Source: a virus
Lineage: Duplodnaviria; Heunggongvirae; Uroviricota; Caudoviricetes
Reading direction: 5' to 3' (one strand)
Virus record (IMG/VR): IMGVR_UViG_2526164601_000026
DNA length: 25,836 nt
Positions 5,584 to 22,094 of the stretch are shown here, piece by piece (the stretch's first letter is position 1; each line of letters starts with the position of its first letter). A program made the translations under genes and the position numbers. The notes beneath the pieces are model-generated. The model did no database searches and was not told the DNA's origin. It saw only the letters and a list, made by a program, of their open reading frames with translations.

Positions 5584-7366
5584 AGCGTTTTGTGGACGGT
5601 ATACAGCAGAAAGCCCCTGGAGATTTTTTTATCAATCAACCAAGGGCTCTACTGTAATGCCTAGACAACATTATAGTAGCCCGATAACCGCCGGAAGGCA
5701 ATGGAGGGGCTATGATGTGTTAACACCAAGCTGTAATGTCCCCTTTCGTAACCATTCTAAAATGTCCCCACGACAATTCTCTGGGGGAGTTTTTCTATGA
5801 TCAAAGAGACTGTTACGATGAGTCATAAGGAACTCCACCGACTTCAGATTATTCAGGAGTCAATTAATCGACATATTACTCAGGAACAAGCTGCGGCACG
5901 CATTGGCATTTCTATTCGGCAGGTTAAACGTCTGGTGCAACGGTATAGAAATGAAGGGCCTTCTGGTCTGGTTTCCCCCCGACGTGGAAAGCGTCCTAAT
6001 AATTCCTTTCTACTGATTCAGAGCAACAGTAATTTCACTCCTCAAAGGCCGTTACGCTGATTTTGGACCTACGTTTGCGTGCGAAAAATTGCGTGAGATA
6101 CACGGTTTATCTTTATCCGTTGAAACTCTCAGAAAGTGGATGATAGAAGAGGGGTTATGGCGTGAACGCCGTCGTAAAATTGCCCGTATATATCAACGCC
6201 GCATGCGACGACCATCTTACGGTGAACTGATCCAGATTGATGGCTCACCTCATGACTGGTTTGAAAATCGAGGCCCCAGATGTACACTGATCGTTTTCAT
6301 TGATGATGCCACCAGTGCGTTGATGGCGTTGCGTTTTGTGCCTGCTGAAACAACCCGGGCTTACATGGAAACCCTCCGGGGTTACCTTAATGATCATGGC
6401 GTACCGCTCGCTCTCTACTCTGATAGACACAGTATATTCAGGGTAAATAACCCAGAGCGGGAAGGTGAGCTGACCCAGTTCACTCGTGCGATAAAGACAC
6501 TGGGCATCGAGCCAATCCATGCCAACAGCCCGCAGGCAAAAGGGCGGTAGAGCGCGCCAATCAGACACTACAGGACAGGCTGGTCAAAGAAATGCGGCTT
6601 CAGAATATCAGTGATATTGAAACAGCAAATGCATGGTTGCCGACCTTTATTGAAGCCTATAACAACCGGTTCGCTACGTCGCCTCGTACTACTGATAATG
6701 CTCATCTTGATGTGCACCATTCTGAAGAGGAACTGGGTTATATCTTCAGCCTACAGGCGAAGCGCGTTCTGTCTAAAAATCTCACTTTCCAGTACAAAAG
6801 CAGTGCGTTTCAGGTACGCAGTGAGGGCCGGGGATATCGACTTAGGCATTCGGTTGTTACTGTATGCGAGAACTTTGACGGTGAAATTAACGTTCTGTAT
6901 GACGGGAAAGCGCTGGGCTGGGAAAAGTATGTTGATGGCCCGGAGCCTATACCACTGGATGATGAAAAGAGTGTCCATGAACGAGTGGATAATGCCCGTA
7001 TTGATTTACGCTCAAAATACTATGTTAAACCTAAAGCTGACCATCCCTGGCTTACGCGCCGAACGCAAAGTCATCAGCAAGTTAAGCCCCCGAAGTTACC
7101 TAAAAAGAAGCCTGATCCCGATAAAAAAGATTGAAACCAAGATCGATTCGGTTGAGTGCATATCCATTCATAGGGTAGATTCTTAAGTCGCGTTTCTGGT
7201 GTTCATTTTCGGGTGGTTTGTTACTTGTTTTACCGGGGATATGCCAGAAACGCGCTGAGTCAGTCTGGGCGGTGCGCGTAATGAGGCGTTATGGCAAATA
7301 GCCTATGCTAATGTCCGCTAAGAGCAAGAAGCGGAAGTTGGCAGTTTGTGGACTGTCCCCACAAAA
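5584..7366 (+). mobile_element. Degenerate insertion sequence (approximate boundaries)
   Basis: Encloses the frameshifted transposase. Imperfect inverted similarity between the left end (gttttgtggacgg, ~5584) and the reverse complement of the right end (ttttgtggggacag, ~7345-7366). Boundaries are uncertain and no target-site duplication was identified. Confidence 0.3.
5797..7134 (+). pseudogene. DDE (rve-type) transposase with N-terminal HTH, split into three frames by two frameshifts
   Basis: ORFs 5797-6060, 6089-6550 and 6592-7134 are consecutive pieces of one ~445-aa transposase (HTH ...IGISIRQVKRLVQRY...; integrase core ...LIQIDGS...IVFIDDATS...). Frame breaks near 6035-6060 (T run) and 6545-6552 (gggcggtag, G run). 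Family guess ISNCY/IS481-like, not verified. Confidence 0.65.
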
Positions 7367-7532
7367 GTGACTACAGAAATAGTTGCAATTCATAATTGAT
7401 CATGGGTTGTCAGTTAAACTCGTGGCGATTTAAATAGACTAATTGGGAGTGCGTCCATTACTTATATCTTGTAATGTTAACTATCAGAAATGATACAAAG
7501 ATAATATGTCTTTAAAGAAAAGGCTGATGGCG

Positions 7533-7555
7533 AAAAGTGGCCCGATGAGGGCCAC
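7533..7555 (-). terminator. Putative rho-independent terminator downstream of flxA
   Basis: Hairpin gtggccc-gatga-gggccac, followed on the minus strand by TTTTCGCC. Confidence 0.35.
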
Positions 7556-7565
7556 AATACGGCTG

Positions 7566-7901
7566 TCACTTAGACGTAAATATCAATGGTGCCAGCGGTA
7601 TTTGTATCGTCTTTTTCTCTTCTTTTTTATCAGGCTGAACTGTCGCGTCTTCATTCTTTTTCTCTGCCTGCTGCCTTAACAACTGCTCCAGTTGAGCCCA
7701 GAGGCTTTCAATTTGCTTCTGTACCAATGCAGCCATTTCTTTTTTCTGCTGTGTCGTCATCCCCTCTTCCGATGAGATTTTCCCAAGCTTTTCAGTCAGC
7801 ACCTGAATTTGTCTTGTGATTTTGGCTATTTCTGATGTTCCTTCCGGGGCGGAGTTGTTTGAAATAACGGTTGAGGTATTTCCCTGAATTGTGACAGACA
7901 T
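7566..7901 (-). CDS. flxA: FlxA-like protein (prophage gene of the flagellar regulon)
   Basis: 111-aa ORF (MSVTIQGNTSTVISNNSAPEGTSEIAKITRQ...) matching my recollection of Qin-prophage FlxA. AGGAG RBS 7 nt upstream of ATG. Sigma-28 promoter immediately upstream. Confidence 0.65.
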   Translation of the reverse strand: MSVTIQGNTSTVISNNSAPEGTSEIAKITRQIQVLTEKLGKISSEEGMTTQQKKEMAALVQKQIESLWAQLEQLLRQQAEKKNEDATVQPDKKEEKKTIQIPLAPLIFTSK

Positions 7902-7924
7902 AGATTTCTCCTTTTAAAAAAGCA

Positions 7925-7951
7925 CTATCGGCATGCACAAAAAAATCTTTA
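7925..7951 (-). promoter_or_regulatory. Sigma-28 (FliA)-type promoter for flxA
   Basis: Minus strand reads TAAAGATT-N11-GCCGATAG against consensus TAAAGTTT-N11-GCCGATAA. The -10 element ends about 24 nt upstream of the flxA ATG. Confidence 0.55.
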
Positions 7952-8397
7952 ATCGTATTTCTTGTGTCATTAATTGTTTGATGTTCAGATTGTTTTCCTC
8001 GCGGGCTGGCGCGCCTCAGAAAGTAAAGCTTGTTGACAGGGGTAAACGTTCGGCAATAATTTTCTGCCGCATGCGGGTGTTGCATAAAACGTGCTACGTT
8101 CCTTTATCGACAGGTCAGGTCACCGCTCACCCGCCGACGAGAAAGCAACACTGACATGCTAAAGCAAAAAATAGATGAATAAGTTGAGTTGTGCATATGT
8201 AGCCTGACCGTCACAAAGTATATGGTGTCTGTACCAGTAAGATGATGGCCGGACTCTTTAAAAACGAGCTGACCTGCACAATACAGGATTGGACTTAGCA
8301 ATGGCTGCTCCTGGCACAAAGCGGACAGTGATCACCGTTCTTACGACTACTTTCTGACTTCCTTCGTGACTTGCCCTAAGCATGTTGTAGTGCGATA

Positions 8398-8424
8398 CTT
8401 GTAATGACATTTGTAATTACAAGA
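8398..8424 (+). promoter_or_regulatory. relBE operator/promoter region
   Basis: gtaatgacatttgtaattacaagagg, with the palindrome ttgtaattacaa, directly upstream of the relB ATG; matches the known relO architecture. Confidence 0.45.
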
Positions 8425-8434
8425 GGTGTAAGAC

Positions 8435-8673
8435 ATGGGTAGCATTAACCTGCGTATTGACGATGAACTTAAAGCGCGTTCTTACGCCGCGCTTGAAAAA
8501 TGGGTGTAACTCCTTCTGAAGCGCTTCGTCTCATGCTCGAGTATATCGCTGACAATGAACGCTTGCCGTTCAAACAGACACTCCTGAGTGATGAAGATGC
8601 TGAACTTGTGGAGATAGTGAAAGAACGGCTTCGTAATCCTAAGCCAGTACGTGTGACGCTGGATGAACTCTGA
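8435..8673 (+). pseudogene. relB: RelB antitoxin, frameshifted as given (A5 run at 8496-8500)
   Basis: Translation MGSINLRIDDELKARSYAALEKWV then stop. The rest of RelB (GVTPSEALRLMLEYIADNERLPFKQTLLSDEDAELVEIVKERLRNPKPVRVTLDEL) continues in the +1 frame. One A appears to be missing relative to the K-12 gene as I recall it. Confidence 0.75.
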
Positions 8674-8961
8674 TGGCGTATTTTCTGGATTTTGACGAGC
8701 GGGCACTAAAGGAATGGCGAAAAGCTGGGCTCGACGGTACGTGAACAGTTGAAAAAGAAGCTGGTTGAAGTACTTGAGTCACCCCGGATTGAAGCAAACA
8801 AGCTCCGTGGTATGCCTGATTGTTACAAGATTAAGCTCCGGTCTTCAGGCTATCGCCTTGTATACCAGGTTATAGACGAGAAAGTTGTCGTTTTCGTGAT
8901 TTCTGTTGGGAAAAGAGAACGCTCGGAAGTATATAGCGAGGCGGTCAAACGCATTCTCTGA
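8673..8961 (+). pseudogene. relE: RelE mRNA-interferase toxin, frameshifted as given (A4 run at 8720-8723)
   Basis: ATG overlaps the relB stop (ATGA). MAYFLDFDERALKEWRK, then the frame is lost; the remainder (...KKKLVEVLESPRIEANKLRGMPDCYKIKLRSSGYRLVYQVIDEKVVVFVISVGKRERSEVYSEAVKRIL) is in another frame (ORF 8749-8961). Confidence 0.75.
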
Positions 8962-9032
8962 ACCAAAGCATGACATCTCTGTTTCGCACCGAAGGTGACA
9001 CTTCTGCTTTGCGTTGACAGGAGAAGCAGGCT

Positions 9033-9188
9033 ATGAAGCAGCAAAAGGCGATGTTAATCGCCCTGATCGTCATCTGTTTAACCGTCATAGTGACGGCACT
9101 GGTAACGAGGAAAGACCTCTGCGAGGTACGAATCCGAACCGGCCAGACGGAGGTCGCTGTCTTCACAGCTTACGAACCTGAGGAGTAA
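9033..9188 (+). CDS. hokD: Hok-family type I toxin (HokD/RelF-like)
   Basis: 51-aa ORF MKQQKAMLIALIVICLTVIVTALVTRKDLCEVRIRTGQTEVAVFTAYEPEE, with a single TM helix. Sits downstream of relBE as in the Qin prophage. Confidence 0.8.
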   Translation: MKQQKAMLIALIVICLTVIVTALVTRKDLCEVRIRTGQTEVAVFTAYEPEE

Positions 9189-9255
9189 GAGACCAGGCGG
9201 GGGAGAATCCCTCGCCACCTCTGATGTGTCAGGCATCCTCAACGCACCCGCACTT

Positions 9256-9282
9256 AACCCGCTTCGGCGGGTTTTGTTTTTT
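9256..9282 (+). terminator. Rho-independent terminator (3' end of hok transcript)
   Basis: aacccgc-ttcg-gcgggtt hairpin followed by TTGTTTTTT. Confidence 0.5.
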
Positions 9283-9354
9283 CCTAGCATTCTGGTTTAC
9301 AATTCGCACGCCAGCCTGAACAACTGGCACCTGCTGCGCCAGCAGAGACAACCG

Positions 9355-9633
9355 ATGGCGCACGATACCAAATTACACAATTCTGATGATTCTGCCGTCT
9401 TTGCCAGCAGGCACGGGCGGCGTTCCCGCACTTTCAAATCTGACTGGTTCCAGCATCCCCCATGCACTGAAGAACAGGCCGAGTGGCTAATTCAGTGCTA
9501 CCGCAGACACGGATACGAGATTAAGAAAGCCCTCAGCCTCGATTATCGTCACTGGATAATCTCCGTCAGGCTTCCTTACTCCGAGCGCCCACCGCGTCCG
9601 TCCCGCACATTCCAGCAACGCATCTGGAGGTAA
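9355..9633 (+). CDS. Rem-like small prophage protein
   Basis: In-frame ATG downstream of the hok terminator; MAHDTKLHNSDDSAVFASRHGRR.... The track ORF 9226-9633 would read through the terminator, so the shorter start is preferred. Position matches rem in Qin; function unknown. Confidence 0.4.
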   Translation: MAHDTKLHNSDDSAVFASRHGRRSRTFKSDWFQHPPCTEEQAEWLIQCYRRHGYEIKKALSLDYRHWIISVRLPYSERPPRPSRTFQQRIWR

Positions 9634-9634
9634 C

Positions 9635-10684
9635 GTGCGGGTATTACTTCGACCTGTTCTGGTACCGGAACTCGGGCTGGTGATCGTTAAGCCGGGCCGT
9701 GAATCCATGCCGGTATTCCACAATACCCGGGTACTGGTGGAGCCGGAACCGAAAAGCATGCGTAATCTGCCGTCCGGGGTTGTTCCTGCCGTTCACCAGC
9801 CGCTAGTGGAAGACAAAACATTGCTGCCGTTTTTCAGTAACGCACGGGTGATTCGTGCTGCTGGTGGTGCTGGTGCATTGTCTGACTGGCTGTTGCGCCA
9901 TATTAAATCCTGCCAGTGGCCACACGGCGATTATCATCACAGCGAAACCGTCATTCACCGTTATGGTACCGGCGCAATGGTGTTGTGCTGGCACTGCGAC
10001 AACCAGCTGCGTGACCAGACATCCGAATCACTCGAGCAACTTGCTCATCAAAACCTGTCAGCATGGATGATTGACGTCATCGGTCACGCAATAAGCGGTA
10101 CGCAGGAGCGTGAATTATCTCTGGCTGAATTATCCTGGTGGGCGGTCTGCAATCAGGTGGCGGACGCGCTTCCGGAGGCAGTATTACGTCGTTCTCTGGG
10201 GTTACGTGCGGAAAAAATCCGCCCCTTGTACCGCGAAAGCGACATCGTACCGGGAGAGCAGACCGCCATCAGCATACTGAAACAGCGCACAAAAAATCTT
10301 GCGCCGCTGCCTCACGCCCACCAGCAACAGAACCCACCACAGGAAAAGACGGTGGTCAGCATTGCCGTTGATCCTGAGCCTCCGGAATCTTTCATGAAAC
10401 GACCTAAACGTCGCCGCTGGGTTAACGAGAAATACACACGCTGGGTGAAGACACAGCCGTGTGCGTGTTGTGGTAAGCCAGCCGACGATCCCCATCACCT
10501 GATTGGTCATGGTCAGGGCGGAATGGGGACAAAATCTCACGATATTTTCACGCTACCGCTGTGTCGGGAGCATCACAACGAGCTTCATGCGGATCCGCTG
10601 GCGTTCGAAGAAAAGCATGGTTCTCAGGTTGATTTAATTTTTCGTTTTCTTGATCACGCCTTTGCAACTGGCGTGCTTGGGTAA
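9635..10684 (+). CDS. DUF968/YdfU-like protein with HNH-like Cys/His motif
   Basis: 349-aa ORF with C-terminal CACCGKPADDPHHLIGHG...CREHHNELH motif. Position between rem and rusA/Q as in Qin-type prophages. Confidence 0.6.
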   Translation: MRVLLRPVLVPELGLVIVKPGRESMPVFHNTRVLVEPEPKSMRNLPSGVVPAVHQPLVEDKTLLPFFSNARVIRAAGGAGALSDWLLRHIKSCQWPHGDYHHSETVIHRYGTGAMVLCWHCDNQLRDQTSESLEQLAHQNLSAWMIDVIGHAISGTQERELSLAELSWWAVCNQVADALPEAVLRRSLGLRAEKIRPLYRESDIVPGEQTAISILKQRTKNLAPLPHAHQQQNPPQEKTVVSIAVDPEPPESFMKRPKRRRWVNEKYTRWVKTQPCACCGKPADDPHHLIGHGQGGMGTKSHDIFTLPLCREHHNELHADPLAFEEKHGSQVDLIFRFLDHAFATGVLG

Positions 10685-10696
10685 AAGAGGTGACTG

Positions 10697-11053
10697 ATGC
10701 TCATAGATTTGGTTTTACCTTACCCGCCGACGGTGAACACTTACTGGCGACGCCGTGGCAGCACATATTTTATCTCGGAGGAGGGAAAGCGTTATCGCCG
10801 GGCTGTGGCGCTTATTGTTCGCCAGCAGCGGCTGAAATTAAGCCTGTCCGGAAGGCTGGCGATAAAGGTGATTGCAGAGCCACCGGATAAGCGTCGTCGC
10901 GACCTGGACAACATTCTGAAAGCACCGCTGGATGCGCTGACGCATGCGGGAGTGTTAATGGACGATGAGCAGTTTGATGAAATCAATATCGTTCGTGGTC
11001 AGCCAGTATCTGGTGGACGTCTGGGGGTGAAGATTTACCCCATAATGCATTAA
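10697..11053 (+). CDS. rusA: RusA-family Holliday junction resolvase
   Basis: 118-aa ORF containing the RusA-like core RRRDLDNILKAPLDALTHAGVLMDDEQ. AAGAGG RBS upstream. Confidence 0.75.
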   Translation: MLIDLVLPYPPTVNTYWRRRGSTYFISEEGKRYRRAVALIVRQQRLKLSLSGRLAIKVIAEPPDKRRRDLDNILKAPLDALTHAGVLMDDEQFDEINIVRGQPVSGGRLGVKIYPIMH

Positions 11054-11067
11054 GAGCAGGTCAAAAA

Positions 11068-11889
11068 ATGAAACTGGAAGATTTACCGAAATACTACTCC
11101 CCAAAATCCCCTGGCCTGACCGATGCATCGGCCTCAACGTCAAAAGATGCGCTGAGTATCACTGATGTGATGGCCGCGCAGGGCATGACACAGAATCGGG
11201 CTGAGATGGGTTTTTCTGCGTTCCTGGGGAAAATGGGCATCAGTATGAATGACAGGGCGCGGGCAACAGAATTACTGGCAGATTATGCACTCAGTCGGTG
11301 CGATCGTGTGGCGGCGTTGAGAAAACTTCCGGCAGAAATAAAACCGGTAGTGATGCGCATTATGGCTTCGTACGCTTTTGAGGATTATGCCCGCAGCGCA
11401 GCGAGTAAAAAGCAGTGCCCTTGTTGCTATGGGGAAAAATTTATTGAAAGCATAGTTTTTACAAACAAGGTCCAGTATCCGGATGGTAAGCCGCCGGTAT
11501 GGGCAAAGTGTACGAAAGGTGTGTATCCGTCTTACTGGGAAGAATGGAAAAAAGTCAGGGAGGTGGTAAAAGTTGCCTGTCCGGAGTGTGGCGGAAAGGG
11601 TGAGGTTTCCACCGCCTGTAAGGATTGCCGTGGGCGTGGTGTCGCCATTCATCGTGAAGAGTCGGTAAAACGTGGTATGCCTGTTATCAGAGACTGCCAG
11701 CGTTGTGGTGGTCGTGGCTATGAAAGACTACCATCAACGGAGGCATTTAATGCTATATGCGAGGTGACAAACCAGATAACACGCGCGTCATGGGAAAAAA
11801 CAGTTAAGAAATTTTATGATGCGCTGGTGACCCGGTTTGATATTGAAGAAGCATGGGCTGAGCGGCAGTTAAAAAAGGTAACTAGGTAA
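11068..11889 (+). CDS. Late-gene antiterminator Q-like protein
   Basis: 273-aa ORF with Cys-rich zinc-binding motifs (CPECGGKGEVSTACKDCRGRG; CQRCGGRG). Located immediately upstream of the PR'/tR'-like region and the tRNAs. Confidence 0.6.
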   Translation: MKLEDLPKYYSPKSPGLTDASASTSKDALSITDVMAAQGMTQNRAEMGFSAFLGKMGISMNDRARATELLADYALSRCDRVAALRKLPAEIKPVVMRIMASYAFEDYARSAASKKQCPCCYGEKFIESIVFTNKVQYPDGKPPVWAKCTKGVYPSYWEEWKKVREVVKVACPECGGKGEVSTACKDCRGRGVAIHREESVKRGMPVIRDCQRCGGRGYERLPSTEAFNAICEVTNQITRASWEKTVKKFYDALVTRFDIEEAWAERQLKKVTR

Positions 11890-11894
11890 CAAGG

Positions 11895-11922
11895 TTGATT
11901 TTTCCGGAATCTGTGGTAAATT
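11895..11922 (+). promoter_or_regulatory. Candidate late promoter PR' (sigma-70 type)
   Basis: TTGATT-16 nt-TAAATT just downstream of Q stop and about 50 nt upstream of a terminator. Confidence 0.35.
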
Positions 11923-11969
11923 CGTCATAACGATGGGCGTTTTATGCCTGACGTTAGAAGAGTTTCTAC

Positions 11970-11995
11970 AACCCGCCGCTGAGCGGGTTTTTTAT
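11970..11995 (+). terminator. tR'-like rho-independent terminator
   Basis: aacccgc-cgctga-gcgggtt hairpin followed by TTTTTTATT. Confidence 0.5.
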
Positions 11996-12032
11996 TGCGA
12001 AATTAATTACGGACCGTTATTATTCTGCTCCC

Positions 12033-12108
12033 GGCCCTTTAGCTCAGTGGTGAGAGCGAGCGACTCATAATCGCCAGGTCGCTGGTTCAAATCCAGCAAG
12101 GGCCACCA
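12033..12108 (+). tRNA. ileZ: tRNA with CAU anticodon, ileX/ileZ-like (tRNA-Ile2)
   Basis: 76-nt cloverleaf: acceptor GGCCCTT/AAGGGCC, D-arm GCTCAGTGGTGAGAGC, anticodon loop CTCATAA, T-arm GCTGGTTCAAATCCAGC, encoded CCA. Closer to ileX than to elongator Met. Confidence 0.85.
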
Positions 12109-12209
12109 TCACAAACCGCCATTAGCTTATCAGGAAGAGCAGACGACACGATAACAGGGTTGTTGGTGCGGGGGGCGGGTCCCCGATGGCGATCCATTAT
12201 CGGTATTCA

Positions 12210-12286
12210 GCGTTGTTAGCTCAGCCGGACAGAGCAATTGCCTTCTAAGCAATCGGTCACTGGTTCGAATCCAGTACAGCGCGCCA
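12210..12286 (+). tRNA. argO: tRNA-Arg (UCU anticodon)
   Basis: 77-nt cloverleaf: acceptor GCGTTGT/ACAGCGC, anticodon stem-loop ATTGC-CTTCTAA-GCAAT, T-arm ACTGGTTCGAATCCAGT, encoded CCA. Confidence 0.85.
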
Positions 12287-12396
12287 TATTCATTCTTCCA
12301 GATTCCTTCCGGCAGAGCCTTATACTGAAATATACCTGGCTCAGGATATTGTTGAAAATATTATATGTTTGTCAAAAATAAAAGTTCTGTTAAGTA

Positions 12397-12750
12397 TTGA
12401 TTGAATATTTGTTATACGGTCTAATGGTTTTTTCAGCATTAAATATTTATCATTCATATGGTGTGGGTAGAGTGAATATTGATGAGGCGTCGGGGTGTTT
12501 CATCCTTAGGCAGCGTATTGATATAGTCAATGCAGCACGAGCAAAGGCCTTCAGCCGTTTGACAGTTTTGTTCTGTACTCCTGATCGTCTTTCGGGAAGA
12601 GACGTTATTATTCTGAATAGTGATGCTATACAGAGGGTTTGCGATGAGTTCATGGTTGCTAATTCAGAATTATTTGCTCTTGTTCAGGAGTACAACAGAA
12701 TAGCCAGGACCTGTGGTATGGATGAACTTCGGATTACTCATCTGGGGTAG
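12397..12750 (+). CDS. Hypothetical protein (cargo gene downstream of phage tRNAs)
   Basis: 117-aa ORF starting at TTG; the first ATG is at 12424. No clear RBS and no family recognised. AT-rich context. Confidence 0.3.
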   Translation: MIEYLLYGLMVFSALNIYHSYGVGRVNIDEASGCFILRQRIDIVNAARAKAFSRLTVLFCTPDRLSGRDVIILNSDAIQRVCDEFMVANSELFALVQEYNRIARTCGMDELRITHLG

Positions 12751-13141: not shown

Positions 13142-13178
13142 CAGCCCCTCTCCGGAGGGGCTGTTTATATTGATTTTG
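13142..13178 (+). terminator. Rho-independent terminator-like hairpin
   Basis: cagcccctc-tccg-gaggggctg GC-rich stem followed by TTTATATTGATTTTG. Confidence 0.4.
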
Positions 13179-13777: not shown

Positions 13778-15685
13778 ATGGTGGAAAGAACCATGGCATT
13801 TAAACACTATGATGTTGTCAGGGCGGCGTCGCCATCAGATCTTGCGGAAAAGCTGACACATAAACTGAAAGAGGGCTGGCAGCCGTTTGGTAGTCCGGTG
13901 GCCATAACCCCTTATACTCTGATGCAGGCGATTACAGCAGAAGGTGATGTGGTGGTCAGTGGTGCAACTGAGCCGGATTGGTACTACGTCATCGTACTGG
14001 CCGGGCAGTCCAATGCCATGGCTTACGGTGAAGGGCTTCCGCTGCCGGATTCATACGATGCTCCGGATCCGCGCATTAAACAGCTGGCGCGCCGCAGTAC
14101 AGTGACGCCGGGTGGGGCTGCCTGCAGATATAACGATATTATTCCGGCCGACCACTGCCTGCATGATGTGCAGGATATGAGTACGCTGAATCATCCGAAG
14201 GCAGACCTGAGCAAAGGGCAGTACGGCTGTGTCGGCCAGGGCTTACATATTGCCAAACGTCTGCTGCCGTATATCCCCAAAAATGCCGGGATTCTTCTTG
14301 TTCCCTGCTCCCGTGGTGGTTCGGCATTCACCCAGGGCGCGGAGGGGACATTCAGTGCGGACACGGGGGCCAGCCAGGATTCGGCGCGCTGGGGTGTGGG
14401 TAAACCGTTATATCAGGACCTGATTGCGCGCACTAAAGCTGCATTACAGAAGAACCCGAAAAATGTGTTGCTGGCGGTGTGCTGGATGCAGGGAGAGTTT
14501 GACATGAGCGCCGCCACCTACGCACAGCAACCTGCGCTGTTTACAGCCATGCTGAAGCAGTTTCGTGCTGACCTCACTGTGTTTAACGCGCAGTGTCATG
14601 GTGGCAGTGCTGTAAATGTGCCGTGGATTTGTGGTGACACGACGTATTACTGGAAAAATACATACGCTACCCAGTACGACACCGTGTACGGCGGGTATAA
14701 AAACAGGGAGAGTGAGGGCGTTTATTTTGTGCCCTTCATGACAGACGGTAACGGCGTCAATACCGCCACTAACGCGCCGGCAGAAGATCCGGATATTCCG
14801 GCATCAGGATATTACGGTGCGGCATCGAGAACGAATGGAAACCAGGTATCATCAAACCGCCCGACACATTTCAGTTCATGGGCGCGCAGGAGCATTATTC
14901 CGGATCGTCTGGCAACCGCTATTCTGAACGCAGCCGGGCGCACCTCCGCCTTCATCAGTGGTAAGGCACCGGAAATCAAACCCTCGCCCGGCGGCAACAC
15001 GCCATCGGGTCCGTCTGCAGATACGTCCGTTCGCACAATCTCCCTGCTGCCGGCAGCCGGAGAGGCTGCTGCGCAGGGCTGGAGCATTAAGGATGGCGGA
15101 ATTCAGTTGTCAGATGGTGTATTTAAGATCACCAAGCAGAGCAATAAAACCTGGTCCCTGACGCATCCGGTGGATGACGCAATTACCCTGCTGACACAGG
15201 GCGGCAGACTGACCTGTAAGTTCCGCCTGTCAGGCGCACTGACCAACAATCAGTTCGGGCTGGGGATTTATCTGTATACGGATGCTCCCGTTCCTGATGG
15301 TGTGGCGATGACGGGTACCGGTAATCCGTTCCTGATGTCGTACTTCACTCAGACCACTGACGGCAGAGTGAATCTGATGCATCACAGGAAAGCCGGAAAC
15401 ACGAAGCTGGGGGAGTTCGGCGATTACGGTAACGACTGGCAGACGCTGGAGCTGGTGTTCACCGCCGGCAGTGCCACGGTTACTCCGAAACTGAATGGAG
15501 TGGCTGGCCCGGCATTCCAGGTTATAAAAGACAGTCTGACACTGGGACTGAATGCGCTGACGCTGACGGATGTTACAAAAAATGCAGCGTATGGCGTTGA
15601 GATAGAAAGTCTGGTGCTGGAGATAAATGCACCGGCAGCATATAAAAAAGAGCCAGCGACTGACCTGAAAGAAGACGCTGGCTAA
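13778..15685 (+). CDS. nanS-p: NanS-p-like prophage sialate O-acetylesterase (N-terminal DUF1737-like plus SASA esterase domain)
   Basis: 635-aa ORF. N-terminus MAFKHYDVVRAASPSDLAEKLTHKLKEGWQPFGSPVA; esterase motif region VIVLAGQSNAMAY. Occupies the position downstream of Q/tRNAs typical of Stx-phage nanS-p. Alternative start at 13793. Confidence 0.7.
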   Translation: MVERTMAFKHYDVVRAASPSDLAEKLTHKLKEGWQPFGSPVAITPYTLMQAITAEGDVVVSGATEPDWYYVIVLAGQSNAMAYGEGLPLPDSYDAPDPRIKQLARRSTVTPGGAACRYNDIIPADHCLHDVQDMSTLNHPKADLSKGQYGCVGQGLHIAKRLLPYIPKNAGILLVPCSRGGSAFTQGAEGTFSADTGASQDSARWGVGKPLYQDLIARTKAALQKNPKNVLLAVCWMQGEFDMSAATYAQQPALFTAMLKQFRADLTVFNAQCHGGSAVNVPWICGDTTYYWKNTYATQYDTVYGGYKNRESEGVYFVPFMTDGNGVNTATNAPAEDPDIPASGYYGAASRTNGNQVSSNRPTHFSSWARRSIIPDRLATAILNAAGRTSAFISGKAPEIKPSPGGNTPSGPSADTSVRTISLLPAAGEAAAQGWSIKDGGIQLSDGVFKITKQSNKTWSLTHPVDDAITLLTQGGRLTCKFRLSGALTNNQFGLGIYLYTDAPVPDGVAMTGTGNPFLMSYFTQTTDGRVNLMHHRKAGNTKLGEFGDYGNDWQTLELVFTAGSATVTPKLNGVAGPAFQVIKDSLTLGLNALTLTDVTKNAAYGVEIESLVLEINAPAAYKKEPATDLKEDAG

Positions 15686-15857
15686 AAGGCCTTATATGTT
15701 TGTAGATGATACTTATATTTGGCAGTACATTTTCTGACAGACAGTGACGGGTGTTGTCAAGATATTGTGTCATTTATAACCTGAATCAGGGGGGCCGGAA
15801 TGTTATCTGGCATTTTTAGCAGAGCCTGAATGCCATAATCACGGCTCCCGGAGTTGG

Positions 15858-15892
15858 CCGTCAGTGGGTGACACTGGCGGTTTTTTTGTTTT
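15858..15892 (+). terminator. Rho-independent terminator upstream of lysis cassette
   Basis: ccgtcagtg-ggtga-cactggcgg hairpin followed by TTTTTTTGTTTTT. Confidence 0.5.
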
Positions 15893-15937
15893 TCTTTACT
15901 TTCATTTTCTGTCGGCGGTGACGGAGACATACATCAG

Positions 15938-16144
15938 ATGGAAAAAATCACAACAGGTGTGTCATACACCACGTCAGCGGTGGGGACGGGATACTGGTTA
16001 CTGCAGCTGCTGGACAAAGTCTCTCCGTCCCAGTGGGTGGCAATAGGTGTGCTGGGAAGTCTGCTGTTTGGCCTGCTGACGTATCTGACTAACCTGTATT
16101 TCAAAATCAGAGAGGACCGTCGTAAGGTGGCGCGGGGAGAGTAG
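15938..16144 (+). CDS. S: Class II holin / pinholin (S21-like)
   Basis: 68-aa [71 protein letters not shown] with two TM helices. GGAG RBS 11 nt upstream. Confidence 0.85.
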
Positions 16145-16399
16145 TCGATGAATAAACAATACGAACTGGTTGTAAAATGAATATTTCTAACTGAAAAAAC
16201 GTTCCATGAGGTAAGAAAAGGTCACAGGCAATCAATAACAGGACGTGATGAAAGACCCTTGCATTTGTGCGCTTTCTCTTTAGATAGCAGCAGATACTGA
16301 AAATCTGAGTTGTCGGGGAGTCAGGGATACAGCTGTGCAAGAGTTGGTCATTGTGATTCCATTGAAATCCTGTATGCCATGAAGGGCAGGATTTTATGG

Positions 16400-16714
16400 C
16401 TACCTGAGCTTTGGTGATAGTAAGTTGAAAATTCGCATTTTTTGCTGACATGCGTAACGAGAATCCCATAAGCAGGGAGGACTTAATTCTTCATTAACCC
16501 ATGCGTTGATATTATGTTTCAGCCGTTGAAGCATCAGCGGTGTTAATGTTGTGGTAATAATATCCAGCGTTTTATGTGAGATCTTACCGTAAGGGTCTGC
16601 AAGAATGCTGCTTGTTGCTTCGTTATTATCTGCCATCAGAAGAAGTAACTCTGATTTAACGTTTTCTGTCATTAGTTGTAAAAATCTTCTGCGCAAACTT
16701 TCTTTACTGTTCAT
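16400..16714 (-). CDS. Hypothetical protein encoded antisense between holin and endolysin (possibly YdfR-like)
   Basis: 104-aa ORF in the 690-bp gap between S and R on the opposite strand. Weak RBS. Qin has a ~103-aa gene (ydfR) between its holin and endolysin, but homology is not verified. Confidence 0.3.
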   Translation of the reverse strand: MNSKESLRRRFLQLMTENVKSELLLLMADNNEATSSILADPYGKISHKTLDIITTTLTPLMLQRLKHNINAWVNEELSPPCLWDSRYACQQKMRIFNLLSPKLR

Positions 16715-16831
16715 TTATATGGCTTCATTTGTTGTAATCTGCTGCGTCTCAAGGGATATGTTTATGAGAGCGACCATGAGTGTTGGATTATATACCTAAC
16801 ATATCAAGGGATTAGAAATCGATAAATCCCC

Positions 16832-17365
16832 ATGCACGAAAAAATAAAATACGGCCTGTCGGCTGCCGTTCTGGCGCTGATTGGTGCAGGTGCTTCTGCG
16901 CCTGAAATCCTCGACCAGTTTCTGGATGAAAAGGAAGGTAACCACACCACGGCATACCGTGATGGTGCGGGGATCTGGACCATCTGCCGTGGTGCCATTC
17001 TGGTGGATGGTAAGCCTGTTATTCCTGGCATGAAGCTGTCAAAGGAAAAATGCGACCGGGTTAATGCCATCGAACGTGACAAGGCGCTGGCATGGGTGGA
17101 GAAAAACATCCGGGTGCCGCTGACCGAACCCCAGAAAGCGGGGATCGCGTCATTCTGTCCGTACAACATTGGCCCCGGTAAGTGCTTCCCGTCGACGTTT
17201 TATAAACGAATTAATGCAGGCGATCGAAAAGGTGCCTGTGAGGCGATTCGCTGGTGGATTAAGGACGGTGGCAGAGACTGCCGTATCCGTTCAAATAATT
17301 GCTACGGTCAGGTCTCACGGCGTGACCAGGAGAGCGCGCTGGCGTGCTGGGACATCGACAGATAG
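16832..17365 (+). CDS. R: SAR endolysin (phage lysozyme, GH24, R21-like)
   Basis: 177-aa ORF. N-terminal signal-anchor-release segment YGLSAAVLALIGAGASAPEIL, then lysozyme core (EGNHTTAYRDGAGIWTICRG...). Confidence 0.85.
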   Translation: MHEKIKYGLSAAVLALIGAGASAPEILDQFLDEKEGNHTTAYRDGAGIWTICRGAILVDGKPVIPGMKLSKEKCDRVNAIERDKALAWVEKNIRVPLTEPQKAGIASFCPYNIGPGKCFPSTFYKRINAGDRKGACEAIRWWIKDGGRDCRIRSNNCYGQVSRRDQESALACWDIDR

Positions 17366-17454
17366 CAGAATATTTTCCTGAAAAATGACGTTGGCCAACG
17401 CGGGTGGATAACACGAAATCCTGAAAACTGGTAAAACCTAAGTGAATAAAAGTA

Positions 17455-17495
17455 AAAACCCCGTTTGTTGGCAGCAAGCGGGGTTTTGTGTTTTC
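17455..17495 (+). terminator. Terminator-like extended hairpin between endolysin and Rz
   Basis: aaaaccccg...cggggtttt stem with inner ttg-gcag-caa helix, followed by GTGTTTTCT. Confidence 0.35.
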
Positions 17496-17700
17496 TGACC
17501 TTGAGCAAGGCAAGGGAGAAATTATGGGTAGGGAGGTACTTTCCCTGTGAGGAAGTATAAAAGATTCTTTCTGAGGTTGTCCATTATGAAAGGCATTGAA
17601 GTGGAGACGCCAGCCAGGCTGGATTTAACAAGAGCGGCAGCTTTTGCCATTCGTATTGTGGCCATTGCTGTTCTGGTCTGGGCAATCCGTTGGTGGTGAT

Positions 17701-18168
17701 ATGAACCGTGTTCTGTGCGTGGTTATCATTGTCCTGCTGGTGGCCTGTGGTGCGCTTAGTCTGGGGCTGAATCATTACCGTGATCACGCCATCATCTACA
17801 AAGAGCAGCGCGATAAAAAAGCCAGTGAGCTGGAGCTGGCGAACGCGACAATTACTGATATGCAGATACGCCAGCGTGATGTCGCTGCACTTGATGCCAG
17901 ATACTCGAGGGAATTAGCCGATGCGAGAGCTGAAAATGAAACTCTGCGTGCTGATGTTGCCGCTGGTCGTAAGCGCCTGCGGATCAACGCCACCTGCTCC
18001 GGTACCGTGCGTGAAGCCACCGGCACCTCCGGCGTGGATAATGCAACCGGCCCCCGACTGGCAGACACCGCTGAACGGGATTATTTCATCCTCAGAGAAC
18101 GGCTGATGGCAATGCAGAAGCAACTGGAAGGAGCACAGGAATATATCCGTACCCAGTGTATACCGTGA
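17701..18168 (+). CDS. Rz: Rz i-spanin
   Basis: Start MNRVLCVVIIVLLVACGALSLGLNHY (N-terminal TM) chosen over the upstream track start at 17644; coiled-coil-rich periplasmic domain. Embedded Rz1 in the +1 frame. Confidence 0.75.
   Translation: MNRVLCVVIIVLLVACGALSLGLNHYRDHAIIYKEQRDKKASELELANATITDMQIRQRDVAALDARYSRELADARAENETLRADVAAGRKRLRINATCSGTVREATGTSGVDNATGPRLADTAERDYFILRERLMAMQKQLEGAQEYIRTQCIP
17936..18106 (+). CDS. Rz1: Rz1 o-spanin lipoprotein (embedded in Rz)
   Basis: MKLCVLMLPLVVSAC lipobox followed by a proline-rich mature peptide; entirely within Rz in another frame. Confidence 0.65.
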   Translation: MKLCVLMLPLVVSACGSTPPAPVPCVKPPAPPAWIMQPAPDWQTPLNGIISSSENG

Positions 18169-18633
18169 TATTTTGTTATGAAGGTGTTACTGGTAACGTT
18201 AAGGTAATTTAACAAAGAGTCAGTTCCGGACTTTATAGTGTGCTCAGTTCATGGCCAAAAACGATTTCTGTGATAAATATTTTGAATATTATTTACAGGT
18301 AAATGGAGTGGGGCACATGGATAGAAATATTACAATAGAGAATGAAGTATATGCCCGTATTGTATGGGCAGAGAAGGCAAAAACACGGTAATTCCGTGTG
18401 TTGCCATGATACCTGATTGGCAGAATAGTTGTTTGGTTTTGAGTATATAGTCAGCGTTTTTTGTTCAGTAATTGCTCCCTCAAAAAATAATAAAACAAGG
18501 TGATTATTTTTGTTTATTATTTAGTTTTTTTTGTGTGTTGTTTTATTGTTTTTGCGTGGTTTGTTTTTTATTGTTATTTCATTAAGGGAAGGTAAATTCA
18601 GGATGGCAGTCTGTAGATAATCGGAGGTCACTT

Positions 18634-18948
18634 ATGCTACATGATCACGTGGCAGAATGTCTGGAGAAAAAAGGACTGTACCGGAGAGCAGCTGAACGAT
18701 GGGCAAAAGTGATGGTACAGCTAAGTGATGACCAGAAAAGAAAAGTGGCGGCACAGAAACGAGCAGAGTGTTTGCGTAAGGCGCGCCGGACTCCGGTTTC
18801 ACCGGTGAACCTGACCGAAATAAAACAAGCGGTCAACAGACTACATTCTGAGTTGGGAATGGGATTTGAAGAGCGGCGGGTATTCCGACGATATAAAGGG
18901 ACAGGAGAACAGAATACGTCCGGAAACGCGCGGTCAAAAAAATGCTAA
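18634..18948 (+). CDS. PerC/Pch-family transcriptional regulator-like protein
   Basis: 104-aa ORF MLHDHVAECLEKKGLYRRAAERWAKVM..., resembling the PerC-family N-terminal motif. Preceded by a ~200-bp AT/T-tract-rich region (18420-18620). Family call from memory. Confidence 0.55.
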   Translation: MLHDHVAECLEKKGLYRRAAERWAKVMVQLSDDQKRKVAAQKRAECLRKARRTPVSPVNLTEIKQAVNRLHSELGMGFEERRVFRRYKGTGEQNTSGNARSKKC

Positions 18949-18984
18949 AAAATATCTGAGAGAGTTATTGCCTGTTACCATAAG

Positions 18985-19011
18985 AAAAAGCGACTTTAGT
19001 GGTCGCTTTTT
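18985..19011. terminator. Bidirectional rho-independent terminator
   Basis: AAAAA-gcgac-tttagtg-gtcgc-TTTTT, between the convergent PerC-like gene (+) and the RHH gene (-). Confidence 0.5.
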
Positions 19012-19029
19012 GTGTCATATATAAGTCGT

Positions 19030-19254
19030 TTAAGTAAACCTGTCTGAACAGGTGCTCTGGTCGTGTTTGTCTTTGTTGGGTACAAATTGAGAATATTTTT
19101 CATTAATTAATCTTCTTCTGCAGGCTTCAATAACCCACGCTGAAAAATTACCTGAACCTTTCAGGTCAAGAGCGATGTTAATTTGTTCAATTATCTGGTT
19201 TGGAAATCGGATGTTGCGGGTTGTTGTTCTGCGGGTTCTGTTCTTTGATGACAT
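19030..19254 (-). CDS. Ribbon-helix-helix (Arc/CopG-like) DNA-binding protein
   Basis: 74-aa ORF with TRNIRFPNQIIEQINIALDLKGSGNFSAWVIEACRRRL, a typical RHH beta-strand/helix pattern. Confidence 0.5.
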   Translation of the reverse strand: MSSKNRTRRTTTRNIRFPNQIIEQINIALDLKGSGNFSAWVIEACRRRLINEKYSQFVPNKDKHDQSTCSDRFT

Positions 19255-19450
19255 AATGTTGCCCCGTATTCAGTGTTGCTGATTTGTATTATCTGAAGTT
19301 GCTTTTACGCTAATTTGATGCAGATCAATTAATACGATACCTGCGTAATAATTGATTATTTCTCGTGGTTTGATGGCGTACACACATGTCGTGATAAACC
19401 TCATGTAGATGATAATTATTATCATTTTCGTGGGTCCTTTCCGGCGATCC

Positions 19451-19473
19451 GACAGGTTACGGGGCGGCGACCT
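19451..19473. other. cos: Phage cos site (cosN cohesive-end sequence GGGCGGCGACCT at 19462-19473), lambda-type
   Basis: ...cgtgggtcctttccggcgatccgacaggttacg|GGGCGGCGACCTCGCGGGTTTTCGCTATTTATGA matches the joined lambda right and left ends as I recall them, about 215 nt upstream of Nu1. Confidence 0.8.
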
Positions 19474-19688
19474 CGCGGGTTTTCGCTATTTATGAGATTT
19501 TTTGAGGGGGAGTTGTTGTTTAATTGTTTGGTATATCTAATTGATAAGTAAGGTGAAAATAAAATAAATACAACAACCTTACGATGTGTTTTGATGTCGT
19601 CAATGCGAAAAATGTCAATGATATCAAATGGTTTTGTAAAAACACATGGTTGTTGTATCGCTTTTTATCGATGGCTTATGGAGAGGAG

Positions 19689-20195
19689 ATGGCCTTTTTA
19701 TTGAATAAAAGTGATATGGCCTCCTCCATCGGTATATCTGTTCAGGCATTTGATAAATGGGGCGTTCCTCCTGTTGAGCGTCGGGGGAGGGAAGTTTTTT
19801 ATGACGTTAAAACTGTACTGGAGATAGATCGCGAGCGGCGACAACACAATCAGAGAATACCTGATGACGAGGGCGATCTGGAGGAAAGGCTGCTTCGGGC
19901 CAGAGCTGAACTGACAGAAGAACAGGCCGTAGCTCAAAAACTTAAAAATCAGGTAACCGAAGGTAAGCTTATTGACACCGGATTCTGTATTTTTGCCCTC
20001 AGTAAGCTGGCAATGGTGTTATCCAGTACGCTTGATTCCATCCCTTTATCCATGCAGCGACAGTTTCCTGATTTAACACCGCGCCATCTTGACCATCTGA
20101 AAACCCTTATTGCTAAGGGGGCAAATCAGTGTGCGCGGGCAGGGGATAAATTACCGGATTTACTTGATGAATATATCAGAGCAACAACTGAATAA
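19689..20195 (+). CDS. nu1: Terminase small subunit (lambda Nu1-like)
   Basis: Aligns with lambda Nu1 (ours DTGFCIFALSKLAMVLSSTLDSIPLSMQRQFPDLTPRHLDHLK versus lambda ETAFCTFVLSRIAGEIASILDGLPLSVQRRFPELENRHVDFLK). GGAG RBS. Alternative start at 19671. 3' end overlaps terA by 29 nt, as in lambda. Confidence 0.8.
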   Translation: MAFLLNKSDMASSIGISVQAFDKWGVPPVERRGREVFYDVKTVLEIDRERRQHNQRIPDDEGDLEERLLRARAELTEEQAVAQKLKNQVTEGKLIDTGFCIFALSKLAMVLSSTLDSIPLSMQRQFPDLTPRHLDHLKTLIAKGANQCARAGDKLPDLLDEYIRATTE

Positions 20196-22094
20196 TATGA
20201 TGAGCGCTGTCACAACTGCATTACAGCCCCTGATAAGGGCATTGCCGGTGACGCCAGTTGAATGGGCTGATCAAAATTATTATCTGCCTAAAGAATCTTC
20301 ATATGGTGAGGGAGAATGGAAAAACGCTGCCATTCCAGATCGCCATCATGAACAGCATGGGGAATGATCAGATCCGCACTGTTAATCTGATTAAATCTGC
20401 CCGTGTTGGCTATACAAAGATGTTGCTGGGGGTGGTCGGGTATTTTATTGAGCATAAATCCCGAAACAGTCTGCTTTTTCAGCCCACGGATTCTGCCGCT
20501 GAAGATTTTATGAAGTCTCACGTGGAGGCGACGATTCGGAACGTGCCATGCCTGAAAGACCTTTCCCCATGGCTGGGTCGTAAACATCGTGACAATACTC
20601 TCACGCTGAAACGCTTTTCATCGGGCGTCGGTTTCTGGTGCCTGGGCGGTGCTGCCGCCAAAAACTACCGTGAAAAATCCGTGGACGTGGTCTGCTATGA
20701 CGAACTTTCCTCGTTCGAGCCGGATGTCGAAAAAGAGGGCTCGCCAACCCTGCTGGGGGATAAGCGTATTGAGGGGTCGGTGTGGCCAAAATCCATTCGC
20801 GGCTCGACGCCTAAAATCAAAGGCACCTGCCAGATCGAAAAAGCCGCTAACGAGTCGGCGCATTTTATGCGTTTTTATGTGCCCTGCCCGCACTGTGGGG
20901 AGGAGCAGTATCTGAAATTTGGCGATGAGTCCACGCCTTTTGGGCTTAAATGGGAGAAGGACAGCCCTGAAAGTGTTTTCTACCTCTGTGAACATCATGG
21001 CTGCGTGATCCATCAGTCTGAACTGGACCAGAGCAACGGGCGGTGGATCTGTGAAAACACGGGCATGTGGACCCGTGACGGTCTGACGTTTTTCAGCGCC
21101 CGGGGTGATGAAATTCCGCCGCCGCGCTCCATCACGTTCCATATCTGGACGGCGTACAGTCCGTTCACCACCTGGGTACAGATTGTCTATGACTGGCTGG
21201 ATGCACTGAAAGATCCCAACGGCCTGAAAACCTTTGTGAACACCACGCTGGGCGAGACCTGGGAAGAGGCCGTGGGCGAAAAACTCGATCACCAGGTACT
21301 GATGGATAAGGTGGTGCGTTACACGGCGGCGGTGCCTGCCCGGGTGGTTTATCTGACGGCGGGCATTGACTCGCAGCGAAACCGTTTTGAGATGTATGTC
21401 TGGGGATGGGCTCCGGGAGAGGAAGCCTTTCTGGTGGATAAAATCATCATTATGGGGCGTCCTGATGAGGAAGAGACGCTGTTACGTGTGGATGCGGCGA
21501 TCAACAAAAAATACCGCCATGCGGATGGCACCGAAATGACTATTTCCCGTGTCTGCTGGGACACCGGGGGGCTCGATGGTGAAATTGTTTATCAGAGATC
21601 AAAAAACACGGTGTTTCCGGGTGCTGCCGGTAAAAGGCGCGTCTGTCTATGGCAAGCCGGTGATCACCATGCCGAAAACCCGCAATCAGCGGGGCGTGTA
21701 TCTGTGTGAAGTGGGAACGGACACCGCAAAAGAAATTCTCTATGCCCGTATGAAAGCCGATCCCTCGCCTGCGGATGAAGCCACGTCGTATGCCATCCGT
21801 TTTCCTGATGATCCGGAGATTTTTTCGCAGACAGAGGCGCAGCAACTGGTGGCGGAAGAGCTGGTGGAGAAGTGGGAAAAAGGAAAGATGCGTCTGCTGT
21901 GGGATAACAAAAAGCGGCGTAACGAAGCGCTGGACTGCCTGGTGTATGCCTACGCGGCATTACGTGTGTCCGTGCAACGCTGGCAGCTTGATCTGGCTGT
22001 ACTGGCAAAATCCCGGGAAGAAGAGACGACCCGGCCAACCCTGAAAGAACTGGCAGCGAAGCTGTCCGGAGGAGTGAATGGTTACAGTCGCTGA
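20167..22094 (+). pseudogene. A: Terminase large subunit (lambda gpA-like), interrupted by two +1 frameshifts as given
   Basis: Three consecutive frame pieces (20167-20367, ~20320-21709, ~21600-22094) together align with lambda gpA end to end. Frame breaks lie in A runs at 20320-20324 and 21601-21606. Confidence 0.85.

Follow-up and report, generated by a model that had tools for sequence, protein, structure and literature searches.

Frameshift clusters in a plasmid-prophage contig of Escherichia coli DEC9E are probably draft-assembly errors and not gene loss

The window analysed here, a stretch of 25,836 nucleotides catalogued as DNA of a Caudoviricetes virus, contains broken genes for a toxin-antitoxin pair (relBE), for the large subunit of the terminase (terL) and for a transposase, which raises the question whether these genes have decayed in the organism or were broken in the course of sequencing. 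The window was identified (exact-protein look-up; 100% identity across 17.9 kb) as a complete draft contig, AIGO01000012.1 of assembly GCA_000249975.2, released in 2012 for E. coli O26:H11 strain DEC9E; the AIGO accession corresponds to the DEC9E draft of Hazen (2012). We consider it probable, at roughly 0.85, that the frameshifts in relBE, the terminase gene, the transposase gene and the others are consensus errors of this draft assembly and not mutations, and therefore the broken genes are almost certainly no evidence of gene loss. The original prediction had left the choice between artefact and pseudogenes open, with the homopolymer pattern as its main argument. The evidence strongly favours artefact: the divergence consists of indels only, the changes are missing from hundreds to more than a thousand other genomes, the draft of a sister strain contains the same kind of error when set against its own finished genome, and the open reading frames are restored by single-base repair. 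The inventory behind the prediction, however, had gaps, and some of its positions and directions were in error.

A comparison with reference sequences revealed a total of 19 indels in the window, all of a single base, where six frameshifts had been counted. Frameshifts are indeed present, but flxA and ydfV are affected as well and an esterase gene has lost its stop codon. For the 3.3-kb mobile element at 5718-9019 (+ strand), which carries tnp, ydfW, flxA, ydfV and relBE, the comparison involved four independent references, namely three IncI plasmids and K-12. The expected changes in relB (8435-8673, + strand; A5 at 8496-8500 versus A6) and relE (8673-8961, + strand; A4 at 8720-8723 versus A3) were both recovered against these references. 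The same holds for the G run of the transposase gene (ISEsa1 family; 5797-7134, + strand), where GGG is shortened to GG at 6545-6547. The first transposase break had been placed in a T run near 6050, yet the T4 at 6052-6055 is the same in all references and the actual deletions lie at 6007-6009 (T4 to T3) and at 6016 (AA to A). On the opposite strand, flxA (7566-7901, - strand) has T5 at 7612-7616 versus T6 in the references, which changes the C-terminus (111 versus 110 residues), and ydfV (8104-8410, - strand) is split by a change from T to TT at 8289-8290. Further downstream, the gene of a SASA/DUF6645 esterase (13778-15685, + strand) has lost its stop codon via AA to A at 15642, together with A7 to A6 at 15643-15648. 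Within terL (20167-22094, + strand) the extra A at 20320-20324 (A5 versus A4 in the references) was as predicted, whereas the supposed extra A at 21601-21606 is in fact a missing one (A6 versus A7). Moreover, a third indel, a deletion 7 bp downstream of this missing A, was overlooked (T3 at 21614-21616 versus T4). Seven indels are non-coding (5747, 5749, 5771, 5789, 5796, 7344 and 15792). Those at 7344 and 15792 correspond to an intergenic T3 at 7345-7347 (+ strand) that is T4 in all references and to an intergenic G6 at 15789-15794 (+ strand) that reads GGGGAGG in the references.

Undoing the indels restored every protein. The repaired transposase comprises 446 residues and the repaired esterase has the reference length of 621, whereas the repaired TerL (642 residues) differs from the references at one position. 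FlxA, YdfV (101 residues), RelB (79 residues) and RelE (95 residues) became identical to their counterparts in K-12 and pDEC9B-1; unrepaired, the relB and relE frames extend for 24 and 23 residues, respectively, from their native starts. The assignment of RelB as an RHH antitoxin (PF04221) and of RelE as a ParE/RelE toxin (PF05016) was taken from precomputed Pfam hits on identical neighbours. Exact-protein look-ups of the N-terminal fragments of the transposase (87 residues) and TerL (66 residues) gave no match, which is uninformative since the gene caller used for the source also left both fragments uncalled. Likewise, the 57-residue C-terminal fragment of RelB is on record in 200 blocks, but it is non-specific, as any upstream disruption gives such a fragment.

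The distribution of the indels over the contig is far from even. As many as 13 of the 19 fall inside the element (P ~3e-8), despite a homopolymer density that is equal between the contig segments, and the 5.7 kb of IncI1 plasmid backbone contains no indels relative to pDEC9B-1. Not all breaks lie in homopolymer runs, as had been claimed, but the association with such runs does exceed chance: 13 of the 19 indels lengthen or shorten a run, and 10 of these 13 occurred in reference runs of at least 3 bases, which make up 18% of the window (P ~6e-6). The others are five insertions located one position past a homopolymer and, at 15792, an A that is missing between two runs of G. The five insertions (C5747, T5749, C5771, G5789 and T5796; 5747-5796, + strand) lie directly upstream of the ATG of tnp and each copies the base of the homopolymer before it (C4, T3, C4, G5 and T5, respectively). 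Four of the five show the exact pattern of a run, one base and the repeated base, for which the chance expectation is ~3e-8. Such repetition of the preceding homopolymer base is a signature of flow-based sequencing. The whole pattern resembles the homopolymer and phasing errors of platforms like 454 and Ion Torrent: under- and over-calls at mononucleotide runs, extra bases that copy the prior homopolymer, the lack of accompanying substitutions, reading frames that are recovered by single-base repair, and a deterioration in repeats and thinly covered junctions. The missing A between the G runs at 15792 fits this picture less well, as do the two changes at 2-base runs.

A survey of complete E. 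coli records (~670 to 1,270 per site) showed how rarely the same states occur elsewhere. The A5 of terL at 20320-20324 was found in 0 of 1,160 records, either of the downstream terL deletions in 0 of 674, any of the eight indels of 5720-6580 in 0 of 802, and the A4 of relE in 0 of 1,268. Likewise, none of the lesions is shared by the plasmid and chromosomal copies of DEC9B (which belongs to the same ST29 clonal complex), by B1_2 or by 7_33_46A, in all of which the run lengths agree with the references. A few sites do recur. The A5 of relB is present in 1 of 1,268 complete records (CP100895), in two Logan contigs, in one ENA metagenome contig and in one NCBI draft, the T5 of flxA in 126 blocks of the collection, complete genomes included, and the state at 15792 in 2 of 699 other records. 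These three variants could be real alleles since they recur in other assemblies, and a mixture of mostly artefacts with a few true DEC9E alleles (relB A5, flxA T5 and the G6 at 15789-15794) would be in line with this recurrence and with the fact that the two Logan contigs with relB A5 have an intact relE and no other extra indels. We nevertheless hold such a mixture to be unlikely. Recurrent sequencing error would produce the same states at A6 and T6 runs just as readily, and several of the other assemblies are visibly indel-rich. Moreover, the 2012 draft of DEC9B, generated in the same project, can be set against the DEC9B genome that was finished from long reads and Illumina data as CP074760 and CP074761. 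Over 11.4 kb the two differ at 6 homopolymer indels and 4 substitutions, and the identical change from T6 to T5 in flxA is among the differences, being present in the draft yet absent from the finished genome, which demonstrates a recurrent miscall for that site.

The segment that holds most of the indels is not prophage DNA as such. At its ends, 5718-5743 and 8994-9019 form inverted repeats that agree at 19 of 26 positions in a direct comparison (a generic inverted-repeat scan did not rank them). The inverted repeats, the target-site duplication and the single transposase frame of 446 residues, seen in the references and again after repair of the window, place the unit in the ISEsa1 family of the IS1202 family, where the name ISEsa1 derives from the PGAP annotation of the transposase. 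Matching duplications of 15-17 bp were found at four independent sites in other genomes, and in the DEC9 lineage the element is repeated, with two copies or more. relBE belongs to an ISEsa1-family element. ISEsa1 itself has been listed as 1,609 bp, with a target-site duplication undetected (Harmer and Hall 2023, PMC10132070). The unit described here resembles it in the PGAP-annotated ISEsa1-family transposase and in the imperfect terminal inverted repeats of ~26 bp, but it measures 3.3 kb, contains flxA, ydfV and relBE, and is flanked by 15-17 bp duplications. The order flxA, ydfV, relB, relE, hokD and the nearly identical relE-hokD junction are shared with the Qin locus of K-12. However, the K-12 copy is 5'-truncated, whereas the window has the full-length element with a transposase gene of intact length and a left inverted repeat. 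Moreover, its left flank is IncI1 plasmid DNA, and downstream lies another lambdoid phage with complete late genes.

The region had been taken for a prophage. Positions 1-5717 (- strand) are, however, IncI1 plasmid backbone, with intact trbC (842-3133), trbB (3126-4196) and trbA (4215-5423), and differ from pDEC9B-1 by two substitutions. In an earlier study the DEC9E draft yielded no large plasmid (PMC5592225); AIGO01000012.1 nonetheless holds these 5.7 kb of IncI1 transfer genes. Immediately left of the element lies a target-site duplication of the plasmid type, TGGAGGGGCTATGATG (5702-5717, + strand), which is not matched by the right flank. That flank is of the chromosomal type, GGAGAAGCAGGCTAT (the Qin-type duplication), and is followed by hokD (9033-9188), so that the lambdoid prophage part begins in this segment (9020-9188, + strand). 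All other element copies for which both flanks were read (20 of 20) have matching duplications of 15-17 bp, and the window alone combines a left flank of the plasmid type with a right flank of the chromosomal type. The relE-hokD junction at 9019-9023 was considered as the chimeric point and rejected, as both K-12 and the DEC9B prophage at potC continue through it without a break; it is a natural end of the element, and the mismatch lies between the element's two flanks.

The position of the element, exactly between plasmid and prophage flanks and with mismatched duplications, is what a chimeric contig from a bridged or collapsed multi-copy repeat would look like. In the sister strain DEC9B the element indeed occurs in identical copies on plasmid and chromosome. 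Real homologous recombination between such copies, i.e. plasmid integration, would yield the same sequence. A search inside the element for a crossover point, by way of SNPs between plasmid and chromosomal copy in DEC9B, found no such SNPs, the copies being identical in substitutions. A real hybrid junction in DEC9E, in which an IncI1 plasmid and a lambdoid prophage recombined via two identical element copies and some of the indels (relB A5, flxA T5) are true alleles, is in our view rather improbable. If true, either the plasmid would have integrated in an Hfr-like manner or it would have captured late genes of the prophage. Much more likely true is that the 3.3-kb relBE element is itself mobile, with the translation start region of hok-family toxin genes as its insertion site. 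The expectation that the late region is probably functional if the frameshifts are artefacts does not follow: plasmid and prophage are joined via a repeat with mismatched duplications and the contig ends within the head genes, and therefore an intact prophage is not demonstrated.

Genuine pseudogenisation, by which slipped-strand mutations would have inactivated relB, relE, the transposase gene, flxA, ydfV and terL in DEC9E, is very improbable. In its favour, replication slippage too affects mononucleotide runs, which is where most changes lie, other assemblies contain relB A5 and flxA T5, and cryptic prophages and IS copies do decay. Natural decay, however, consists mostly of substitutions, larger deletions and IS insertions, and this spectrum is not what the element displays: it has 13 private indels and 0 private substitutions relative to the three IncI plasmids and K-12. 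Over the 9 kb that can be compared with pDEC9B-1 the contig shows 14 indel columns and 3 substitutions, where the column at 9019 marks the boundary of the plasmid divergence and is no indel. Where near-identical references are available, an artefact is expected to show more indels than substitutions, as is the case here. In addition, slippage would have to account for five insertions within 50 bp that all copy the upstream homopolymer base, and for changes in terL, relE and tnp that none of the ~670 to 1,270 other complete E. coli records per site shares. Differences of this kind also separate the sister draft of DEC9B from its own finished genome, and the indels in question sit in a repeat of a contig whose flanks do not match.

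Many IS transposases (as in the IS1 and IS3 families) use programmed -1 frameshifting at A-rich slippery runs, and an IS2 in the neighbouring DEC9B locus is so annotated, but that the split frames of the transposase gene or terL are functional as they stand through programmed ribosomal frameshifting was rejected as practically out of the question, given that the transposase is one uninterrupted frame of 446 residues in pSA20064858.1 and pDEC9B-1, that TerL is a single frame of 642 residues in all references, that no conserved two-frame layout exists in relatives, that the breaks are private to AIGO01000012.1, and that the transposase would need three separate shifts.

How the proposed assembly errors could have arisen may be outlined as follows. 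Flow-based sequencing on a 454-type platform, which we presume for the DEC drafts from the error signature, would produce under- and over-calls of homopolymers as well as spurious bases that repeat the prior homopolymer one flow cycle later. In the DEC9 lineage an IncI1 plasmid and a prophage carry identical copies of the element. Short reads are unable to span a repeat such as the 3.3-kb element, and the assembler may have bridged it with few and poor reads, thereby joining the left flank of the plasmid to the right flank of the prophage. The error rate of the element, which is ten times that of the remainder of the contig, could be ascribed to this bridging. The remaining indels are located in prophage late-gene sequence, which is likewise multi-copy in such genomes.

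Drafts of the 2012 age can carry clusters of single-base errors in repeats that give the false impression of lost toxin-antitoxin, packaging and transposase genes, and can also fuse plasmid with chromosome. For DEC9E it is unsafe to draw conclusions on prophage function, the status of RelBE or plasmid content from AIGO01000012.1. With respect to the family, the relBE, flxA and ydfV genes known from the Qin prophage of K-12 travel within a 3.3-kb element of the IS1202 family that has clear inverted repeats and target-site duplications.

When the window is aligned with its closest relatives, 19 single-base indels prove to be private to it. Positions 5650-9400 were compared with the IncI plasmids pDEC9B-1, a pig E. 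coli plasmid and Salmonella pSA20064858.1 (where the transposase is annotated as intact) and with the Qin prophage of K-12; the prophage part was compared with the prophages of strains B1_2 and DEC9B. Within 5718-9019 there are five insertions (+C 5747, +T 5749, +C 5771, +G 5789 and +T 5796), three deletions in the transposase gene (T4 to T3 at 6007-6009, AA to A at 6016 and GGG to GG at about 6545), an intergenic T4 to T3 (7345-7347), and one change each in flxA (T6 to T5, 7612-7616), ydfV (T to TT, 8289-8290), relB (A6 to A5, 8496-8500) and relE (A3 to A4, 8720-8723). The prophage part shows AA to A at 15642, through which the esterase gene (13778-15685) loses its stop codon and is extended by 14 codons, an adjoining A7 to A6 (15643-15648), GGGGAGG to GGGGGG at 15789-15794 (the 15792 variant) and three changes in terL: A4 to A5 at 20320-20324, A7 to A6 at 21601-21606 and T4 to T3 at 21614-21616. 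The original prediction had counted six frameshifts. The alignments bear out those in relB and relE, the first in terL and the second in the transposase gene. The 'extra A' of the second terL run is in fact a missing one, the T run near 6050 does not differ from the references, and the third terL indel, the changes in flxA, ydfV and the esterase stop codon and seven indels in non-coding sequence had been overlooked.

Judged from these comparisons, the frameshifts are very probably artefacts (a probability of roughly 0.85). Inside 5718-9019 the differences private to the window are 13 indels, without a single substitution; the sole substitution relative to pDEC9B-1, at 6155, is common to other copies. 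Of the 13 indels that alter the length of a run, ten affect runs that have at least three bases in the references; such runs make up 18% of the window (P ~6e-6). Moreover, in all five insertions the added base is that of a homopolymer shortly before it (CCCC TTT [C] G [T]; CCCC A [C]; GGGGG A [G]; TTTTT C [T], with the inserted base in brackets). If the flows followed the 454 order T-A-C-G, every extra base would coincide with a flow of that nucleotide that should have stayed empty between the two true neighbours; lagging templates late in a pyrosequencing read produce such extra bases. The indels are also strongly clustered: 5718-9019 holds 13 of them (P ~3e-8 under a uniform rate), the 16.8 kb of the prophage part the other six and the 5.7 kb of plasmid backbone none. 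Homopolymer density is equal among the three segments.

The states of the window are nearly missing from complete E. coli genomes. No record carries the terL A5 (1,160 records that contain the site), the downstream terL deletions at 21601-21616 (674 records), the eight indels in 5720-6580 (802 records) or the relE A4 (1,268 records), and relB A5 occurs in one of 1,268; one of the two changes at the esterase end was seen in one of 1,992 records. A control is provided by the same sequencing project: when its 2012 draft of DEC9B (AIGL01000009.1) is set against the finished chromosome of that strain, six homopolymer indels and four substitutions appear over 11.4 kb. The four substitutions fall in the ISEsa1-family element and in IS2, both of which are repeats. 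The draft contains exactly the T6 to T5 change of the window in flxA, where finished DEC9B equals K-12, which shows that this state arises as a miscall at that site. Undoing the indels yields RelB (79 aa), RelE (95 aa), FlxA (110 aa) and YdfV (101 aa) identical to those of K-12 and pDEC9B-1, a transposase of 446 aa, an esterase of reference length and a TerL of 642 aa that is one residue off the references. This residue, I469L, results from a private substitution at 21572 (C; A in the references) directly after a G6 run, and may be a further consensus error.

Three of the window states recur elsewhere, so a few of the 19 indels could be real among a majority of artefacts, which we regard as unlikely. 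Outside the window, relB A5 is found in CP100895, two Logan contigs, one ENA metagenome contig and one NCBI draft, flxA T5 in 126 blocks of the collection and the 15792 variant in two of 699 records; against this stands the miscalled flxA T5 of the DEC9B draft. In clean-looking assemblies (the Logan contigs from ERR2235216 and ERR4623180, and CP100895.1) the relB A5 allele adjoins an intact relE, and a 57-aa C-terminal RelB fragment starting at Met22 may still be made where this allele occurs. Genuine pseudogenisation throughout is highly improbable in view of the indel-only divergence, the rarity of the indels in other genomes and the DEC9B control. Programmed frameshifting was excluded because the genes are single open reading frames in all relatives.

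The window itself is a composite. In BLAST searches of complete E. coli genomes, 1-9023 (trbC, trbB and trbA, followed by the ISEsa1-family transposase gene, ydfW, flxA, ydfV, relB and relE) is 99.8% identical to the IncI1 plasmid pDEC9B-1, and 9019-25836 (hokD, a DUF968 gene, rusA, Q, two tRNA genes, the esterase gene, holin, lysozyme, terS, terL, portal and S49 protease) shares 99.6-99.8% identity with a chromosomal lambdoid prophage of the O26 strains B1_2 and DEC9B. No single record in either collection searched spans the whole window. An exact-protein look-up with its flxA product led to contig AIGO01000012.1 of GCA_000249975.2, which at 25,836 bases is exactly as long as the window and shows 100% identity across the 17.9 kb compared; the window is thus one complete draft contig. 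AIGO00000000 is the draft of E. coli DEC9E (O26:H11, ST29, Mexico 1986) by Hazen et al. 2012 (PMC5592225, Table 1). Some features of the prophage part deserve mention. The tRNA genes lie at 12033-12108 and 12210-12286; one has a CAT anticodon (Met according to ARAGORN, Ile according to PGAP in relatives) and the other encodes tRNA-Arg (TCT). At 14258-14311 the esterase gene has 16 substitutions in 54 bp relative to both close references, flanked by nearly identical sequence, which looks like a short recombination or gene-conversion tract. At 15706-15720 the window lacks some 139 bp of B1_2 and DEC9B (12701-12840 in reference record L001), at a place bounded by short direct repeats that resemble each other (GATACTTAT...TTTTCTGACAGACAG); a natural deletion or an assembly collapse may be the cause.

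At the junction, IncI1 transfer genes (1-5717) are joined via the element to a chromosomal-type lambdoid prophage (9020-25836). Only in the window are the flanks of the element mismatched, with the plasmid duplication on the left (TGGAGGGGCTATGATG) and the chromosomal duplication on the right (GGAGAAGCAGGCTAT). Finished DEC9B has two copies of the element, one carried by pDEC9B-1 and one by a prophage at potC, with zero substitutions between them. The right flank of the window matches not this potC prophage but another DEC9B prophage, in which the target site is empty. Thus, the contig traverses a chain of repeats and is more likely a chimeric assembly than a genuine recombinant. That the errors are gathered in a repeat, within a contig whose flanks are of different origin, is a further line of evidence for artefact. 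Homopolymer errors and repeat-induced chimeras are well known in drafts of the 454 era, and the frameshifts are therefore best not taken as a real biological feature. The original prediction was right to entertain a sequencing artefact, but its corollary that the prophage late region would then probably be functional is unsupported, as the contig is a plasmid/prophage hybrid that ends within the head genes.

The segment at 5718-9019 forms a discrete mobile element of the ISEsa1 family (IS1202 family). It is bounded by inverted repeats of 26 bp (19 of 26 positions matching by direct comparison) and carries tnp, ydfW, flxA, ydfV and relBE. The relBE genes, frameshifted as written, are part of this element and not of the prophage proper. 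The relBE locus of K-12 Qin is a 5'-truncated copy. Target-site duplications of 15-17 bp match in all 20 other copies with both flanks read, and four independent insertion sites were found: upstream of hokD in Qin-like prophages, upstream of a pnd-type hok gene in IncI plasmids and at two chromosomal sites in AP024281.1. The first two lie in the Shine-Dalgarno/start-codon region of the toxin gene, which suggests a target preference for hok start regions; the duplication (window 5702-5717 and 9020-9034) rebuilds the start region of the hok gene. The family name ISEsa1 derives from the PGAP annotation of the transposase. PGAP labels the enzyme 'incomplete, missing C-terminus' in pDEC9B-1 (L002, 23813-24862) and in the pig plasmid (L003, 7980-9029) and calls ydfW separately. 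The label is an annotation quirk: the pDEC9B-1 reading frame has 446 uninterrupted codons and the pig plasmid copy has no indel relative to it. For ISEsa1 itself the literature gives a length of 1,609 bp and records no target-site duplication (PMC10132070). In contrast, relBE, flxA and ydfV are carried here by a 3.3-kb unit whose duplications are clear at four sites, including two hok-family start regions, a by-product of modest interest.
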